A DNA stretch of 35,623 nucleotides. Source: Candidatus Omnitrophota bacterium (GTDB lineage: Bacteria; Omnitrophota; Gorgyraeia; B26-G9). Location of the stretch: contig QNCH01000001.1 of assembly GCA_003645745.1 (NCBI GenBank), forward strand, positions 1 through 35,623, written 5' to 3'. The stretch's first letter is position 1, and every line of letters starts with the position of its first letter. This document shows, piece after piece, positions 30,045 to 35,623 of this stretch. The notes under the pieces are model-generated. The model was not told where the DNA came from. It saw only the letters and a list, made by a program, of their open reading frames with translations, and searched no databases. The position numbers and the translations under genes were made by a program.

Positions 30045-30115
30045 GAAGAATGGCGGCAGCTATCGCAATTGGAGAAAAGTAAAAATGAAAATTAATAAAA
30101 ACAATAATCCTGTAG

Positions 30116-30135
30116 GGTATGGGCATGCCCATACC
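30116..30135 (+). promoter_or_regulatory. Perfect 20-bp GC-rich palindrome/hairpin 72 nt after the giant ORF stop (possible 3' stabiliser or protein-binding site)
   Basis: ggtatgggcatgcccatacc equals its own reverse complement. It is not followed by a T-tract, so it is not a canonical intrinsic terminator. Confidence 0.3.
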
Positions 30136-30227
30136 TCTAATAGAAATAAAATAACCATCTAATTTAATATATAAGGAGTTTTTTTAATTTGTTTAAATTT
30201 TTAAGGGGTTACAAAAAGGAGCTGTGT

Positions 30228-30410
30228 TATACTCAAATGTAATAGGTTTGCAATTTTATGACGTTCCCCTCACACTGCATCTTGAAACGTTTTTTTATCT
30301 CCAAACCTTAACGCAGCAAGCTGCGCCTGCGGTTTGTCTTAGGTCAGATCGTTCCAATCTACAGTACAGGGAAATGTCTAAATTTTACAAACCTATTACG
30401 TTTGAGTATA
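30228..30410. repeat. Palindromic MITE/REP-like element, copy A (183 bp)
   Basis: Its termini tatactcaaatgtaataggtttgcaatttta ... aaattttacaaacctattacgtttgagtata are inverted repeats. The inner segment acgttcccctcacactgcatcttgaaacg has a degenerate inverted partner at ~30351-30380. It shares ~80% identity with the left arm of copies B and C. Confidence 0.8.
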
Positions 30411-30431
30411 GGTTGAATTTTGCCTATGTGG

Positions 30432-30456
30432 ATTCCCGCTAAAAGATTGCGGGAAT
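30432..30456 (+). promoter_or_regulatory. 8-bp perfect hairpin in the leader of the 30629 CDS
   Basis: attcccgc (30432-30439), a 9-nt loop, then gcgggaat (30449-30456). Sequence-related arms recur at 30515-30523 (atttcctgc) and 30574-30582 (gcaggaaat). Confidence 0.35.
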
Positions 30457-30491
30457 GACACAAAATGGTGATGATAAAGCGGGTAGGATTG

Positions 30492-30511
30492 ATTATAGGA
30501 TATCCTATAAT
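30492..30511. promoter_or_regulatory. Perfect 20-bp AT-rich palindrome (candidate operator)
   Basis: attataggatatcctataat equals its own reverse complement. It lies 118 nt upstream of the 30629 start codon. Confidence 0.3.
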
Positions 30512-30514
30512 GTC

Positions 30515-30600
30515 ATTTCCTGCATAGCAAGCAGGACAGACTCCTGCAATTTTTTAGCGGGTATGTCTTGCTTGCAGGAAATCTAATTTATTTTTATTTT
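30515..30600 (+). terminator. Long imperfect hairpin followed by a T-rich tract (candidate terminator or attenuator directly upstream of the 30629 RBS)
   Basis: atttcctgca (30515-24) pairs with tgcaggaaat (30573-82). agcaag (30526-31) pairs with cttgct (30567-72). The hairpin is followed by ctaatttatttttatttttt (to 30600). Confidence 0.35.
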
Positions 30601-30611
30601 TTAACCTTTTG

Positions 30612-30620
30612 AAAGGAGGA
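30612..30620 (+). promoter_or_regulatory. Shine-Dalgarno site for the 30629 CDS
   Basis: The sequence is aaaggagga, with core aggagg at 30614-30619, 9 nt before ATG 30629. Confidence 0.75.
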
Positions 30621-30628
30621 TAGGGGGG

Positions 30629-33600
30629 ATGAAGAAGTACGGATTTTTTAGGCAGGTAAGTGTTGTGGTAGTTTGGTCTTTTTTAATTGCTAATTTAGGG
30701 ATGTATTTGCCTGCAGCTCGTTTAGTTTATGCTCAGCCAGCGGTTGGCGTAGGTGGGCAGGAATTTGTTATGCAGGTTAAAAGCGCGTTACAGGTTTTAG
30801 TAGAAGTTGACAAAGAAAACAGCGCGAAGCTTACTCAATTTCAGGCTGATACAGTGGGGAAAACTGAAGAGCTCAAAGATAAAGAGCAATTAGCGGGTTT
30901 GGTAGTGCAGACTGTTGGCGCGGTAGCTGCCCAGAAACCTCAGATGAATGCGGCACAGATAAAAGCTGAAGTTACAAAGATATTTGAGGGCATAGTTGAA
31001 AAAGCGGAAACACAAGGCCAGACAACGATAGGTGAGATCGAAACAGCTGATTTTAATACTCTGGTCAGCCAAATGCTTGAGCCTTTAGAGGTAAGCAGCG
31101 CGGGTGATAAAATTGTTATTGACATTGGAGATAATAGCAGCGTATTAGTTTATAACGCGACAGATAAGCAGTTGGCACAAATGCCGCGTAATGAAGCAAA
31201 TGTATTATTAGCTAAAGCTGAAACTGCTCAATCAGCAGTTATGCCAGTTGTGTCTTTAGCTTTAACAGAAATTGATTTTAGCGCTGATCCCGGACAAATT
31301 TTAGCTGACTTAGCCGATAGTTTAATTAGTACAGGCCAATCCAGCCCTGTGGCAAAGGCGCAAACAGCAGTGGTAACACGTGAATTAAGCGCGCAGATGA
31401 GTGATCCTGCAATAAATTTAGATACGGTAAAAGGGGAAGTGGTTAGTGCTATAGAGCAGAAAGGCCTGATCGGAACAGGTAAACTGTTTGCAGACACAGG
31501 TAAAGTTGAGACATTAGTAAACACTATAATTACCAGCATAAGCGGCAAGGCTATGGAACAAAGTAAAGTTATTACAAAATCCGCGAATATTTTAATTGCG
31601 CAGCTTGGCATAGAAAAATCAGATGCTTTGACTGCAATAATGCCTCAGGTAAAAACTACAGCAGCAATAATGATCACAGGAACACAAGATCAAAAAACAG
31701 AAGCAGTGCAGGTTTTAGCAAATAATTTAAATAGTGTTGGTGTAAACACAAACGTTGATAATTTGAGCAAAGACATTAGTACAAGCATATTTCAGGCTGA
31801 ATGCAGCACAAAAGAAGTAGTTACAAGCGCGGCGCATTCAATATTAGCAGATTTAGGCATAGGTGAAGACAGAGCCGCAGTTGTAATGCCTGTGCTTGAA
31901 AACGCGGTAACAGCAGTGCTTACTGGTAATCCTGAACAAAAAACAGCAGCAGTACAGGCTTTATCAGCTAAATTAACTAATTTAGGGGCAGCAGATCTGA
32001 ATGTAGATGAATTGGAAACAAAGATTATTTCAAATATTTCTTCTGTAATGGCTGAGAAACAGGAAATTGTTGCGCAGGCATCTGTGCTTGCAGCGGATAA
32101 TCTGAATATAAATATAACAGATGCTCAAACAGAGACAATTTTGCCTCAGGTAAAGAGTACAGTGGCAGCAGTAATCATTGGCACGCAAGAGCAAAAAACA
32201 GAAGCAATCTCAAAATTAGAGAATTTGATTGCTCAGGAAACTGGGGCAAGTATAGAACCTGGCCAAATAGAATCAACCATTATAACAAGTATATCTCAGT
32301 CACAGATTATGGGTACAGATGTAGTGGGAAAGGCATCTGCATTTGTAGTTAATAGTTTAAATATAACAACGGAGCAGGCAGAGACAATTTTGCCTCAGGT
32401 AAAGACTACATTAGCAGCAGTGATTGGCGGCACGCAAAAGCAGAAAACAGAAGCTGTAGTGGTTTTAGCTGACAGCTTAGCTGATGTTGGTGTAAGTATT
32501 GATAATTTAGAAGCAAAGATTGATTTGGGTTTAGCTCAGGCAGCAATTAATACTTCTCCTGTTGTCTATAATCAAGTTAGTTTGAATGAATTTGTTACGC
32601 AAAAACAAGCTCAGGTTTTGTCAGGGCAACTTCCCGGAGCGCAGGTTGCTGCGATACAGAACGCGGCAGCAGAGCAGTTAAACGTTGCGCCGCAAGAGCA
32701 GGGAATTGTATTTGACTCGGATAATTTGCCGCAAGCGGTTCAGACAGCTTGCGTGCAAGCTGGAATTAATACACAAGATGTTGCTTATATCAGGGTTAAT
32801 CCTGGTGATTATAAGACAGGAGAGGTGAGTGTAAAAATTGTTTCTGCTGATAAACAGAGCAACCAGGGTAAAGTGAATATTGAAATCAGCCCGGTAAATT
32901 TAAATACAGACAACAAGCAAGATAGGGCAATGTTGAGCAAAGCTGCGGAAGGTATGGATGCATTAGATACAAATATTGCTAATATTGGCGGAGTATTGGT
33001 AAATTTTCAGAAAATGCTGCGTACAGTAAATGCTGAAGCTGTAATTGAACCAATTTCTGATACGGAAAGAAATACACCGCAAGTAAATGAAAGCAATTAT
33101 CTGGTTGTGTCTGCAAAGGCATTTGGACAGGTTTCGTCTAAGACTGAGCAGGGAGTTGAAGTAAAGGTTAATGGCATAGCCACACAACCAATGCTTAATT
33201 TGTTGAGCCAGACTAATAAAATTGTGGTTGTATTTGAGGGAGAAGATGTAAATCCCGAGAGTTTTCTTACAGAAATGGGGTATGAAACCAAGCAAATTGA
33301 AGTTATCGATTCTTATAATGTTGGAGAATTTGAGGGTAAGGGGATAAATACAGCAAGTACAATTACCGCGGAATCAGTTAAAGGTGTGCTTGAGGCAAGG
33401 CATGGTAAGTTAGGCGCAGTGCATTATCTGGTTGCTAATGAAGAAAAACAGGGAAGTTTAAAAACTCAGGTTATAGAAATGAAAAAACAGGAAGGTAATG
33501 AAAATGTAAGTTATTCTCTTTTTCCCTTGGACTTAGGTAAAGGTGAGGTAATTAACCTTGATGTTTGCTTATGCCAGGCAGTAAGCACAATGATTTTTGG

Positions 33601-33814
33601 TACAGGCAATAATTTAACCACAGAGGATAAAAAGACCTATGGCGCAATGATTAGGGCTGTTTTAGGCAATAATTCTCCATTGATTATTAATCTTGGAGAC
33701 CAGCAAATTGCTGAAGCAATGAATGATAAATTACAGTCAATTAGTGCGACATCTACTACAAATATTGAAACTGAGTATATGACAGTTTACGTTAAACCAG
33801 GCAAGTGGGCATAA
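30629..33814 (+). CDS. Secreted (Sec signal peptide) 1,061 aa repeat protein of unknown function
   Basis: Strong RBS and ATG. The N-terminus MKKYGFFRQVSVVVVWSFLIANLGMYLPAARLVYA|QP has a basic n-region, a hydrophobic core and a V-Y-A cleavage-type site, with no lipobox Cys. Four ~83 aa Ala/Val/Gln-rich repeats are followed by a ~330 aa non-repetitive C-terminal region. An intrinsic terminator follows the gene. Confidence 0.85.
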   Translation: MKKYGFFRQVSVVVVWSFLIANLGMYLPAARLVYAQPAVGVGGQEFVMQVKSALQVLVEVDKENSAKLTQFQADTVGKTEELKDKEQLAGLVVQTVGAVAAQKPQMNAAQIKAEVTKIFEGIVEKAETQGQTTIGEIETADFNTLVSQMLEPLEVSSAGDKIVIDIGDNSSVLVYNATDKQLAQMPRNEANVLLAKAETAQSAVMPVVSLALTEIDFSADPGQILADLADSLISTGQSSPVAKAQTAVVTRELSAQMSDPAINLDTVKGEVVSAIEQKGLIGTGKLFADTGKVETLVNTIITSISGKAMEQSKVITKSANILIAQLGIEKSDALTAIMPQVKTTAAIMITGTQDQKTEAVQVLANNLNSVGVNTNVDNLSKDISTSIFQAECSTKEVVTSAAHSILADLGIGEDRAAVVMPVLENAVTAVLTGNPEQKTAAVQALSAKLTNLGAADLNVDELETKIISNISSVMAEKQEIVAQASVLAADNLNINITDAQTETILPQVKSTVAAVIIGTQEQKTEAISKLENLIAQETGASIEPGQIESTIITSISQSQIMGTDVVGKASAFVVNSLNITTEQAETILPQVKTTLAAVIGGTQKQKTEAVVVLADSLADVGVSIDNLEAKIDLGLAQAAINTSPVVYNQVSLNEFVTQKQAQVLSGQLPGAQVAAIQNAAAEQLNVAPQEQGIVFDSDNLPQAVQTACVQAGINTQDVAYIRVNPGDYKTGEVSVKIVSADKQSNQGKVNIEISPVNLNTDNKQDRAMLSKAAEGMDALDTNIANIGGVLVNFQKMLRTVNAEAVIEPISDTERNTPQVNESNYLVVSAKAFGQVSSKTEQGVEVKVNGIATQPMLNLLSQTNKIVVVFEGEDVNPESFLTEMGYETKQIEVIDSYNVGEFEGKGINTASTITAESVKGVLEARHGKLGAVHYLVANEEKQGSLKTQVIEMKKQEGNENVSYSLFPLDLGKGEVINLDVCLCQAVSTMIFGTGNNLTTEDKKTYGAMIRAVLGNNSPLIINLGDQQIAEAMNDKLQSISATSTTNIETEYMTVYVKPGKWA
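31577..32570 (+). repeat. Four tandem ~82-85 aa helical repeats inside the 30629 CDS
   Basis: Core motif is (I/V)(M/L)PQVK(T/S)T.AA(V/I)I.GTQ.QKTEA...L. It starts near 31636, 31882 (diverged: VMPVLENAVTAVLTGNPEQKTAA), 32138 and 32388. An exact 26-nt DNA repeat (agagacaattttgcctcaggtaaaga) links copies 3 and 4. Confidence 0.85.
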
Positions 33815-33841
33815 GGTTATTTATTGCTAGGCAAATATTTC

Positions 33842-33876
33842 AGGGGCACATTACAATGTGCCCTTGATTTTTTGTT
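33842..33876 (+). terminator. Rho-independent terminator of the 30629 CDS
   Basis: The gggcaca (33844-50) / tgtgccc (33857-63) stem has a 6-nt loop and is followed by ttgattttttgtt. It lies 29 nt after the stop codon. Confidence 0.75.
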
Positions 33877-33911
33877 ATGGCTGCTTTAGAAGGCCATAAA
33901 TTCAGGGAATT

Positions 33912-33940
33912 TATACTCAAACCTATTACGGTTGAGTATA
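33912..33940. repeat. Palindromic element, minimal copy D (29 bp; fused termini only)
   Basis: tatactcaaacctattacggttgagtata has a 9-bp terminal stem, tatactcaa/ttgagtata. It corresponds to the outer ends of copies A and B without the interior. It ends 2 nt from the stop codon of the minus-strand permease gene. Confidence 0.6.
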
Positions 33941-33942
33941 TT

Positions 33943-35031
33943 TTATTTTTTCACTCTGCTAACCATAAGAATTCCAACAAATAAAAAAATAAAATTTGTC
34001 AGCCATGCTGCTGCTAAGGCAGGCAACACGTTTATTTTACCTAAAGATAAGCAGGCCGCGTTTATGCCCCAGTAGCTGAATCCGCTGATAATACTCAGAG
34101 TTATGGCAAAGAGATTGTTAGATGAGCGCGTATGCCTTAAGCTCGCTGGCACAGCAAAGAAGATGAGCAGCAGGTTAGCTAAGGGAAAGGCTATTTTGTT
34201 GTAAAAAATAACAAGTTCTTTTTGTACGTCAAATCCATTTGCCTTGAGCCTGCGGATATATTTTTTTAATTGCCAATAATTCATAAACAAAGGCTTTACA
34301 TTGGCTCTTTTTATGTCTTTTGGCTGTTCGTCAATAGGAATAACTTTTTCTGCAAAATACTGCGGATCCTTTGCTAATTCACCGTTGTTGTATTCAGTAA
34401 TAACACAATCATAGAATATCCAACAATTTTCTATCCATAGGGCTTGTTTTGCTGCTATTTGCCTGGATAATTGGTTCTGGGCGTTGTTTTCAGAAATAGT
34501 TACATTTTGCATTTTCCTGCGTTTTATGTCATAGCTGTTAATAATAAAAATTCTGTTGTGTGAACCATAGAAAGTAAGATTTTTTATAATTTTATTTTTT
34601 TGTTTTTTTTGTACTGTTTTAAAGTACGTTTCTTTAAGTTCTTCAGCATGCAATGACGCGTTTGGTTTAACTATTTCATTTACCGTAAAACTAATCGCGC
34701 TAAGCAAAAAGCCAAGGATTAGAAAAATCCAGATAATGCTCCAGAGATTAATCCCGATTGCTTTAATTGCTGTTATTTCATTATGTTTATTCAAGCTGCC
34801 CAAAGTAAACATAACTGAGAGAATCATTATGATTGGGCTGATATTGGTAAAGATAAAAGGTGTTAGAGATAAATAATAATCGCAAAGCACAAATAAAGGA
34901 ACGTTTGCTTTAGCAATTTCATCTAAATGTTCAAAAAGGTCAATGACCCATGATAAACAGATAAAAGTAGTTAAGCAAAACAAAAAAAATTTTAAAAATT
35001 TATCCAGAATATATTGTTTTATAAGTTTCAT
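33943..35031 (-). CDS. LptF/LptG (YjgP/YjgQ) family LPS export ABC transporter permease, 362 aa
   Basis: The N-terminus MKLIKQYILDKFLKFFLFCLTTFICLSWVIDLFEHLDEI is typical of the family (Pfam PF03739). Three N-terminal TM helices are followed by a ~150 aa soluble beta-jellyroll-length insert and three C-terminal TM helices (FYNKIAFPLANLLLIFFAVPASL...). The start is set at ATG 35031 because the 40 upstream codons of the ORF-track call translate the palindromic repeat. Confidence 0.85.
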   Translation of the reverse strand: MKLIKQYILDKFLKFFLFCLTTFICLSWVIDLFEHLDEIAKANVPLFVLCDYYLSLTPFIFTNISPIIMILSVMFTLGSLNKHNEITAIKAIGINLWSIIWIFLILGFLLSAISFTVNEIVKPNASLHAEELKETYFKTVQKKQKNKIIKNLTFYGSHNRIFIINSYDIKRRKMQNVTISENNAQNQLSRQIAAKQALWIENCWIFYDCVITEYNNGELAKDPQYFAEKVIPIDEQPKDIKRANVKPLFMNYWQLKKYIRRLKANGFDVQKELVIFYNKIAFPLANLLLIFFAVPASLRHTRSSNNLFAITLSIISGFSYWGINAACLSLGKINVLPALAAAWLTNFIFLFVGILMVSRVKK

Positions 35032-35034
35032 TGT

Positions 35035-35194
35035 TAGGCTCAAACGTAATTGGTTTGTAATTTTATGACATTCCCCTGTGCTGCATCTTGAAACGTTTTT
35101 CATTCGCAAATCTTTAGTGCGCCTAAGGTAGAACGTTTCAAGATGCAGCACATGAAAACGCCTAAATTTTACAAACTAATTGCGTTTGAGTATA
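35035..35194. repeat. Palindromic MITE/REP-like element, copy B (160 bp)
   Basis: The outer arms are ctcaaacgtaattggtttgtaa / ttacaaactaattgcgtttgag. The perfect 21-bp inner stem is tgtgctgcatcttgaaacgtt (35078-98) / aacgtttcaagatgcagcaca (35132-52). The two stems are separated by 16-nt internal loops. The element abuts the permease start codon with a 3-nt gap. Confidence 0.85.
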
Positions 35195-35587
35195 TTAAAA
35201 CATATAGGGTATAGCGACGCTTCTGCGTTTACTCCTTCAAGCTATCTTAGCAAAAATCCATTAACGTTTAAATTTCGTTATCATTTATATTATAGCATTT
35301 CATTGATAAAATTTGGAAAAATTATTAAAATTTTTGGCTCTTTTACAGAATCTGTGGGGAAAAATACAAAAAAATAGCATTGTTGACTGGTTTGGTATAA
35401 TTGTTTTGACAAAAAGAAACCTAACCAGAAAGACCAACAAGGCTAATAAAAACAATACTAAATAAAACATATCCTGTCAAAGGATTTGTTTTTGGCAAAG
35501 TCAGCTTTTTAAACAATGTGATAACAATTGAAGTGATGTCACGTAAAAGATCTAAAGCAATATGCTCGTGTTGCAGTTTCCCCAATT

Positions 35588-35623
35588 TATACTCAAACGT
35601 AATTGGTTTGTAATTTTATGACA
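35588..35623. repeat. Palindromic element, copy C (left arm only; truncated by the window edge)
   Basis: tatactcaaacgtaattggtttgtaattttatgaca contains a 32-nt segment (ctcaaacg...tgaca) identical to copy B at 35039-35070. Confidence 0.75.

Follow-up and report, generated by a model that had tools for sequence, protein, structure and literature searches.

The first 35,623 nucleotides of contig QNCH01000001.1 from a Candidatus Omnitrophota bacterium (assembly GCA_003645745.1; this whole stretch is called the window below) raise the question of what the palindromic repeats lying between its genes are, and how they came to be there. From left to right, the window holds a giant open reading frame (ORF) of 9993 amino acids (63–30044), repeat copy A, a 1061-residue repeat protein (30629–33814), copy D, the permease gene lptG, copy B and, beyond a 393-nt non-coding stretch, copy C. 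An earlier reading of the DNA, made without database searches (the sequence-only reading), had proposed these four copies and two possible origins for them, either a miniature inverted-repeat transposable element (MITE) or a repetitive extragenic palindrome (REP) or bacterial interspersed mosaic element (BIME); all four are present where it placed them (Table 1), and every intergenic spacer of the window contains at least one, as it claimed. We are highly confident that the four repeats belong to a TA-targeting MITE family that is mobilised by IS630-type insertion sequences (ISs), resembles the RUP and Correia elements, and is very dense in a lineage of Omnitrophota.

The copies are tied together by their ends. 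The common terminus described by the sequence-only reading, TATACTCAAAC, occurs six times in the 35.6-kb window when up to one mismatch is allowed, each time at an end of one of the four copies, compared with 0.96 occurrences expected, and none of 100 shuffled sequences reached six. A repeat finder recovered the left arms common to A, B and C (84–100% identity) and the right arms common to A and B, together with inverted-repeat arms of 43 nt at 81% in copy A and 66 nt at 79% in copy B. The 32-nt identity noted earlier between copies B and C is exact (35039–35070 and 35592–35623), and copy B indeed folds into the two-tier hairpin proposed for it, with a 23-bp outer stem and a perfect 21-bp inner stem (35077–35097 and 35132–35152) whose right arm is the exact complement of its left; comparable variants occur among other loci, and the left terminus of copy B is degenerate (TAGGCTC). 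The predicted hairpins are far more stable than those of shuffled controls, at −65.5 kcal/mol for copy A (z = −9.1) and −71.9 kcal/mol for copy B (z = −12.3). Copy D, which consists of the terminal 23 nt of one terminal inverted repeat (TIR) and the last 6 nt of the other, folds into an 11-bp stem with one mismatch and a 7-nt loop, CTATTAC.

To place these copies in a wider family, we searched a degenerate terminus pattern in species-representative genomes and in Joint Genome Institute (JGI) metagenomes. Two contigs of one uncultured-bacterium metagenome-assembled genome (MAG) matched, each with several copies, and at least 119 stretches of the JGI metagenomes matched, all but one among the matches listed from metagenome Ga0164318. 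A lone 22-nt match in a Bacteroidales locus (L004) was taken as chance, and viral contigs scanned with the terminal pattern gave no match. From the genome and metagenome matches we fetched 743 kb of related loci (labelled L001 onwards), chosen for containing a copy, in which we counted 454 termini and between 154 and 188 two-ended copies, bearing out the earlier suggestion of a dispersed mobile family that extends beyond this locus, with hundreds of copies elsewhere. Loci of 8 kb or more contain 0.54 termini per kb, and about 3% of their DNA is element-like, in a sample biased towards copy-bearing contigs.

The copies fall into size classes, the largest being 181–184 bp (about 72 copies) and exactly 29 bp (about 60), accompanied by smaller groups of 160–172, 120–122 and 95–97 bp; copy D, seen earlier as a minimal form, thus belongs to a recurrent class. 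The 101 full-length copies comprise 99 distinct sequences with a consensus of 182 bp, counting the flanking TA, and in an alignment of 71 of them the mean column identity is 90%; copy A is 89% identical to this consensus and copy B, over its own length, 88%. The TIRs are 23 bp long and nearly perfect, with the sequence TA|TACTCAAACGTAATWGGTTTG, and all termini begin TATACTC, apart from the degenerate left end of copy B. Pairing between columns 5–23 and 164–183 is kept in 63–71 of the 71 copies, except at positions 13 and 17, which covary. Every copy shows the same polarity, with GTAATTTTATGAC in the left arm and GTAAAATTTAGGCG in the right arm (as reverse complement), so the palindrome is imperfect in a conserved manner. 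Each terminus additionally contains a small hairpin, CAAAC-7 nt-GTTTG, and the 29-mers consist of the first 23 nt of one terminus and the last 6 nt of the other, joined across the common GTTTG (or CAAAC). The 120- and 96-nt classes probably arose by deletion between short direct repeats. At 182 bp the consensus lies within the size of bacterial MITEs (under about 300 bp), and the longest ORFs within copies result from artefactual read-through that fuses them to adjacent genes.

The target site of the family was identified from empty sites, for which the flanks of each element were joined by TA and compared with all loci. The resulting filled and empty pairs come from elements lying inside other repeat families that also have uninterrupted copies. 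Copy A is one of these: it sits inside a host repeat unit (30160–30227 and 30411–30456), and its flanks joined by TA match uninterrupted units in L051 and L043, the comparison with L051:1488–1601 leaving a 181-nt gap at the empty site ...gctgagt TA gattgaatttt. Similarly, a single TA remains when L017:4158–4340 is compared with L043 and L018 (181-nt gap), L091:1245–1426 with L077 and L123 (180 nt), L071:6192–6372 with L039 (179 nt), L096:325–475 with L086 (149 nt) and the 29-mer L030:3829–3857 with L005. The gap equals the element length minus 2 in these comparisons, and exactly one TA is kept in six out of six, which defines the mobile unit as TACTCAAAC...GTTTGAGTA with duplication of TA, the outcome anticipated when a TA target-site duplication was first suggested. 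Adjacent elements share one TA at L100, L101 and L117. Beyond the TA, the flanks are AT-rich, and no motif was detected in them. The host repeat unit of copy A recurs at L106:10317–10627 with a MITE at the identical TA, which would fit copying of the composite as a whole.

Terminus fragments of 12–24 nt directly precede complete copies at L006:39, L042:936, L053:5751, L065:317, L097:8513 and L107:7078. We considered these as insertions nested at a TA inside other copies (L006:39, L107:7078 and others), but the host copy does not resume past the inner one; the fragments are therefore not simple nested insertions and were left out as evidence.

Duplication of TA does not by itself identify the transposase family. 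A non-autonomous derivative of an IS200/IS605-type element (a palindrome-associated transposable element, PATE) or of an IS5-group element (IS427/ISL2), some of which make 2-bp duplications, would have to be considered, and subterminal hairpins are present here as they would be in such a derivative. The ends of the family, however, are symmetric 23-bp TIRs and not an asymmetric left end and right end, and no TnpA or TnpB gene is associated with the termini. A PATE would also insert 3' of a fixed tetra- or pentanucleotide, whereas the flanks here show AT-richness alone beyond the TA. Moreover, six-frame translations of all loci, scanned for motifs, yielded a single IS630-type DDE gene, located in L013, which carries these very ends, and no IS5-type candidate with them was seen. 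A PATE or IS5-group origin consequently retains next to no probability in our assessment.

The DDE gene belongs to a 1132-bp IS bounded by TA (L013:325–1456), with TATACTCAAACGTAATTGGTTTGCAAAAAATG as right inverted repeat (IR) and TATACTGCTCCGTAATTAGTTTGTAAAAAATT as left IR. Its 349-residue ORF, terminated by a stop codon within the right IR, scores 186 bits against the NCBIfam model NF033545, ‘IS630 family transposase’ (cutoff 100), and also matches Pfam DDE_3 (102 bits), HTH_33 and HTH_29. The first 23 nt of the right IR are identical to the MITE consensus (23/23), and 27 of 30 nt agree with the MITE right end, so that the search for an IS630/Tc1-like transposase with matching ends, which the sequence-only reading had recommended, did lead to an IS630-family element carrying the same terminal 23–27 nt. 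A second copy of this IS, 98% identical and at a different site, was found in a marine metagenome (L127), and relatives at 65–69% identity were found in L124–L126; the elements in L124–L127 have the same architecture, with TATAC...TGGTTTGCGAAAAATG (TATAC...TGGTTTG) ends. In the MITE-rich metagenome, L086 carries a MITE copy together with the last 124 nt of the IS at the contig edge, identical to L013 at 116 of 124 positions and encoding ...GKHFLQTNCV followed by a stop. Judging from the match of the ends, the L013-type transposase would be what moves the MITE.

Within the window itself no transposase is encoded, as judged from its ORFs and domain searches and as reported before. ORFs bracketed by inverted termini were examined as candidate autonomous copies and proved to be housekeeping genes merely flanked by separate copies. 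Around the IS in L013, positions 1–324 and 1457–1727 contain, by eye, the C-terminus of an IS3-type integrase on one side and an IS4/IS1634-like fragment on the other. These transposase gene fragments suggest that the IS lies in an IS-rich ‘graveyard’, a setting also reported for targets of RUP.

The REP/BIME explanation put forward by the sequence-only reading found no support. It would treat the family as a REPIN-like system, in which the terminal hairpins are recognised as single-stranded DNA (ssDNA) by a REP-associated tyrosine transposase (RAYT, of the HUH Y1 type), the 29-mer being the singlet and the 182-bp element an inverted doublet. The small hairpin within each terminus agrees with this, as do RAYT-like Y1_Tnp genes in the same metagenome (L040:12783–13370, Pfam 27.9 bits, and seven paralogous fragments) and the REP-like stem compensation and orientation bias of the 29-mers described below. 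The complete RAYT-like gene in L040, however, has a different repeat (GTAG+GGACAGGTCGYGACCTGTCC or GTAG+GGACAGGTC...) both on its flanks and within it, and such GTAG-headed hairpins form separate families with the stems ATTCCCG, GGACAGG and GGGCATG. The MITE termini begin with TATAC and not GTAG, they duplicate TA on insertion, and they coincide with the IR of an IS630-family IS. We therefore regard a REP/BIME identity of the whole family as very unlikely.

The 29-bp class nevertheless has properties of its own, which we describe from small samples. The loop GTAATAG is present in 41 of 58 29-mers (71%) compared with 56 of 208 full-length termini (27%; Fisher p = 3e-9). In the outer 6 bp of the stem, a compensatory double change occurs in six different 29-mers against 0.13 expected (p = 5e-9), and in none of the 71 full-length copies. 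By crude gene calls (ORFs of at least 100 residues), the sense-strand loop is CTATTAC for the 29-mers in 19 of 23 co-directional spacers (p = 0.0026). A role as intrinsic terminators was rejected, since the 29-mers show no enrichment of T-runs (3.3 versus 3.5 T in 10 nt). Stem compensation, the skewed loop variant and the orientation bias all point towards a separately maintained, REP-like class that amplifies itself or is kept by selection as RNA or ssDNA hairpins, a proposal that we consider unlikely on balance, though with a real chance of being correct. Possible causes include a self-amplifying lineage, correction of the quasi-palindrome by template switching during replication, and selection for an RNA or ssDNA hairpin. 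If the proposal were true, MITE ends would have been converted into a REP-like system of genomic hairpins in Omnitrophota; in any case, the class is a small example on which the maintenance of palindromic remnants can be tested.

Of 104 full-length copies, not one is contained in an ORF. The sequence-only reading had placed the elements exactly at gene boundaries, which is true of copies D and B, lying 2 nt from the lptG stop (33943) and 3 nt upstream of its ATG (35031), but not of copy A, which lies 184 nt past the stop of the giant ORF and 218 nt ahead of the next start. Because copy B stands 3 nt from the start of lptG, the ribosome-binding region of that gene must lie inside it, where the terminus is mutated to TAGGCTC. 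In co-directional spacers, full-length copies run with transcription in 24 cases and against it in 23, showing no orientation bias by the same gene calls.

Such positions, abutting start and stop codons, together with the very stable predicted hairpins (z = −9 to −12), would also be expected of a structured RNA present in many copies, maintained by transcript selection as a hairpin with a regulatory or stabilising role and only secondarily mobile. In each of the 71 aligned copies, one particular strand folds about 20 kcal/mol better than the other (−91.7 versus −72.1), and two pairs of TIR positions covary, 13/175 (UA 34, UG 17, CG 16, CA 3) and 17/170 (UA 47, AU 15), both of which would suit an RNA. 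On the other side, the balanced orientation means that the better-folding strand is transcribed no more often than its complement, support from RNAalifold is limited to the TIR stem and small central hairpins, and a permissive Rfam search returned only plant microRNA hairpin models at 32–39 bits, below their gathering thresholds of 90–119. The strand difference arises because conserved A·C mismatches turn into G·U on the other strand; being common to all copies and unbiased in orientation, the asymmetry is most simply inherited from the founder copy. We thus hold a primarily RNA-based explanation to be extremely improbable. In copy B, the two outer-stem differences are G–T on the + strand, as had been pointed out, but this confers no + strand advantage on the whole molecule, since copy B folds equally well on both strands and copy A better on the − strand (−80.7 versus −65.5 kcal/mol).

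A promoter-like match faces outward from the right end of copy B into its flank (Table 1). It agrees with 10 of 12 consensus positions, and its −35 hexamer and spacer belong to the family consensus (TTTACA-17 nt-TATAnn). An outward promoter role was nevertheless set aside, promoter-like matches in the region numbering 20 against 17.3 expected, which is not above chance. The influence on transcript ends or translation starts that the sequence-only reading considered probable would have to be weighed against this count, the balanced orientation of full-length copies and the absence of T-runs after the 29-mers.

Taken as an IS630-mobilised MITE, the family would consist of a gene-less element of about 180 bp (182-bp consensus with the flanking TA), at whose 23-bp TIRs an IS630-family DDE transposase, provided in trans by the 1.13-kb IS with the same ends, would bind and cut. 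The element would insert into a TA dinucleotide, which would then be duplicated, presumably through cut-and-paste chemistry. Preference for TA, combined with selection against gene disruption, may have left the surviving copies in AT-rich spacers and in the TA of stop codons. An imperfect internal palindrome inherited from the founder would make a long hairpin possible in every copy, and deletions between short direct repeats in this palindrome may have produced the short classes of about 160–172, 120–122, 95–97 and 29 bp, copy B probably being one such deletion variant and copy D the 29-bp form.

Several observations weigh against this account. At positions 7–10 the left IR of the IS has GCTC where the MITE termini have CAAA, and no complete IS copy was recovered from the organism of the window, the MITE-rich metagenome having yielded only the end at a contig edge. 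The empty sites are paralogous repeats or diverged homologues and not strain-level polymorphisms, so recent mobility is not demonstrated by them, and the TA duplication taken alone would equally fit an element that inserts 3' of a TA and itself ends in TA. Additionally, the 29-bp class departs from what a simple model of random deletion products would predict.

Table 1. Repeat copies and associated features of the window, with positions counted from its first nucleotide.
Feature	Position	Strand	Description
Copy A	30228..30410	+	Full-length MITE, 183 bp including TA at both ends; core 30230-30408
Copy A TIRs	30228-30250 and 30388-30410		Left-arm type GCAATTTTATGAC, right-arm type CTAAATTTTAC
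Copy D	33912..33940	+	29-bp derivative: TA + 25 nt + TA
lptG	33943..35031	-	LptF/LptG permease, 362 aa; Pfam PF03739, 266 bits
Copy B	35035..35194	+	160-bp MITE variant; central deletion relative to consensus
Sigma-70-like match, outward-facing	35168..35196	+	Copy B right end and flank: TTTACA, 17 nt, TATATT
Copy C	35588..35623	+	Left end only, rest cut by window edge; 36 nt, left-arm type

The MITE shares its spacers with other repeats. The hairpin GATTCCCGCTAAAAGATTGCGGGAAT(GACA) at 30431–30456 is a member of a second abundant family, with 92 hairpins in 693 kb of loci; these hairpins always run on into ...GACA on one side and have NTAG, ACAG or ATGG ahead of them on the other. In the window, this hairpin is contained in a wider repeat unit around copy A (30160–30227 and 30411–30590). 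Just past the giant ORF, cctGTAGGGTATGGGCATGCCCATACCtc at 30109–30140 is a GTAG-headed, REP-like hairpin. Among the loci, GTAG followed by a perfect hairpin is two to three times commoner than the same arrangement with control tetramers, and GTAG+GGACAGGTCGYGACCTGTCC hairpins flank and interrupt the RAYT-like Y1_Tnp gene in L040 (12750–13330). The seven RAYT-like fragments, at about 55% identity, suggest that several REP/RAYT systems exist in the lineage, and canonical REPs thus co-exist with the TA-targeting MITE as something distinct from it.

Among the host genes, the lptG product of the window is 60–65% identical to its best named homologues, which come from Candidatus Omnitrophota/Omnitrophica MAGs; by sequence similarity these homologues place the host in Omnitrophota, and the 9993-residue ORF fits the phylum. 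In a relative with 65% LptG identity (L128:8900–11089), lptF and lptG lie 3 nt apart, the genes are tightly packed, and no MITE copy was found in 21 kb of that locus. In the window, tblastn detected neither lptF nor a remnant of it upstream of lptG, between copies B and C. The stretch immediately before copy C (35425–35587) was considered as a possible ISL3-like N-terminal remnant but set aside, having no Pfam match. The proteins of the window had no homologues in the 743 kb of related loci and so give no evidence that the organism of the window and the MITE-rich population belong to one species. The giant ORF shows weak matches to RHS repeats, dockerin and EF-hand domains in its first 1000 residues and to TPR in its last 1000. 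The 1061-residue protein is secreted-looking, has no Pfam match and is encoded with four internal DNA repeats of about 250 nt (31635–32495); no exact copy of it is on record in the assembly collection.

The family also has practical consequences for annotation and assembly. Since the element is open in some reading phases, ORF calls overextend genes: the mechanical call for lptG is 402 residues (33943–35151, − strand) compared with the real 362, and seven apparent ‘paralogous proteins’ at 72% identity (for example L037:2417–3379 and L007:3055–3846) are nothing but element read-through. Annotators should therefore be aware of ORFs spuriously extended into the element. Many copies lie at contig ends, and part of the window is duplicated on a contig of only 1.6 kb; the family explains assembly breaks at spacers in these genomes.

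TA-duplicating, IS630-related MITEs in bacteria have been known for decades, so it is not the mechanism that is new here but the family in Omnitrophota, a phylum known almost only from MAGs. A consensus, TIR, target site and candidate transposase are now defined for a very dense repeat family in this phylum, and the spacers of the lineage appear as built largely of mobile palindromes, comprising the MITE, at least two further hairpin families and RAYT genes. Complete genomes of Omnitrophota are the subject of a 2026 preprint, which names IS110, IS5 and IS1634 but makes no mention of IS630, MITEs or palindromic repeats, and our literature search found no account that combines Omnitrophota with MITEs.

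Compared with known systems, the features of the family agree with the published definition of bacterial MITEs and with the precedent of RUP and IS630-Spn1 in Streptococcus pneumoniae (PMC2229807). Like the family described here, RUP is non-coding and intergenic, exceeds 100 copies, has TIRs and inserts at TA; in both, the link to an IS630-family element was drawn from TIR similarity, and each is frequently found within other repeats or ISs (PMC2229807). The two have no sequence similarity, RUP being 107 bp long with 9-bp TIRs as against 182 bp with 23-bp TIRs here, and the long imperfect palindrome, the 29-bp derivative class and the Omnitrophota host set the present element apart. The Correia elements (NEMIS) of Neisseria likewise have termini that start with TA, TA duplication, TIRs of about 24 bp, at least two size classes differing by internal deletion, long RNA hairpins and a location near genes (PMC2229807). 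They are nonetheless unrelated to the present family in sequence and host. The ends of Correia elements can create outward promoters, a parallel to the TTTACA-17 nt-TATAnn at the right end of the element here; we know of no transposase partner for Correia elements, whereas one has been identified for this family. Stowaway-type MITEs, derived from Tc1/mariner elements, share the IS630-Tc1-mariner superfamily, TA duplication, small size, hairpin potential and genic neighbourhoods, but differ in their eukaryotic hosts and unrelated sequences. With REP, BIME and REPIN sequences the family has in common that they are abundant extragenic palindromes, the 29-bp class being REP-like in size and stem maintenance. 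REPs have a conserved GTAG-type head 5' of an imperfect palindrome of 20–40 nt, insert without duplicating their target and depend on association with a RAYT gene flanked by cognate REPs. The family of the window, in contrast, has a TATAC head, a duplicated TA and an IS630 partner, and GTAG-headed REPs co-exist with it as separate families.

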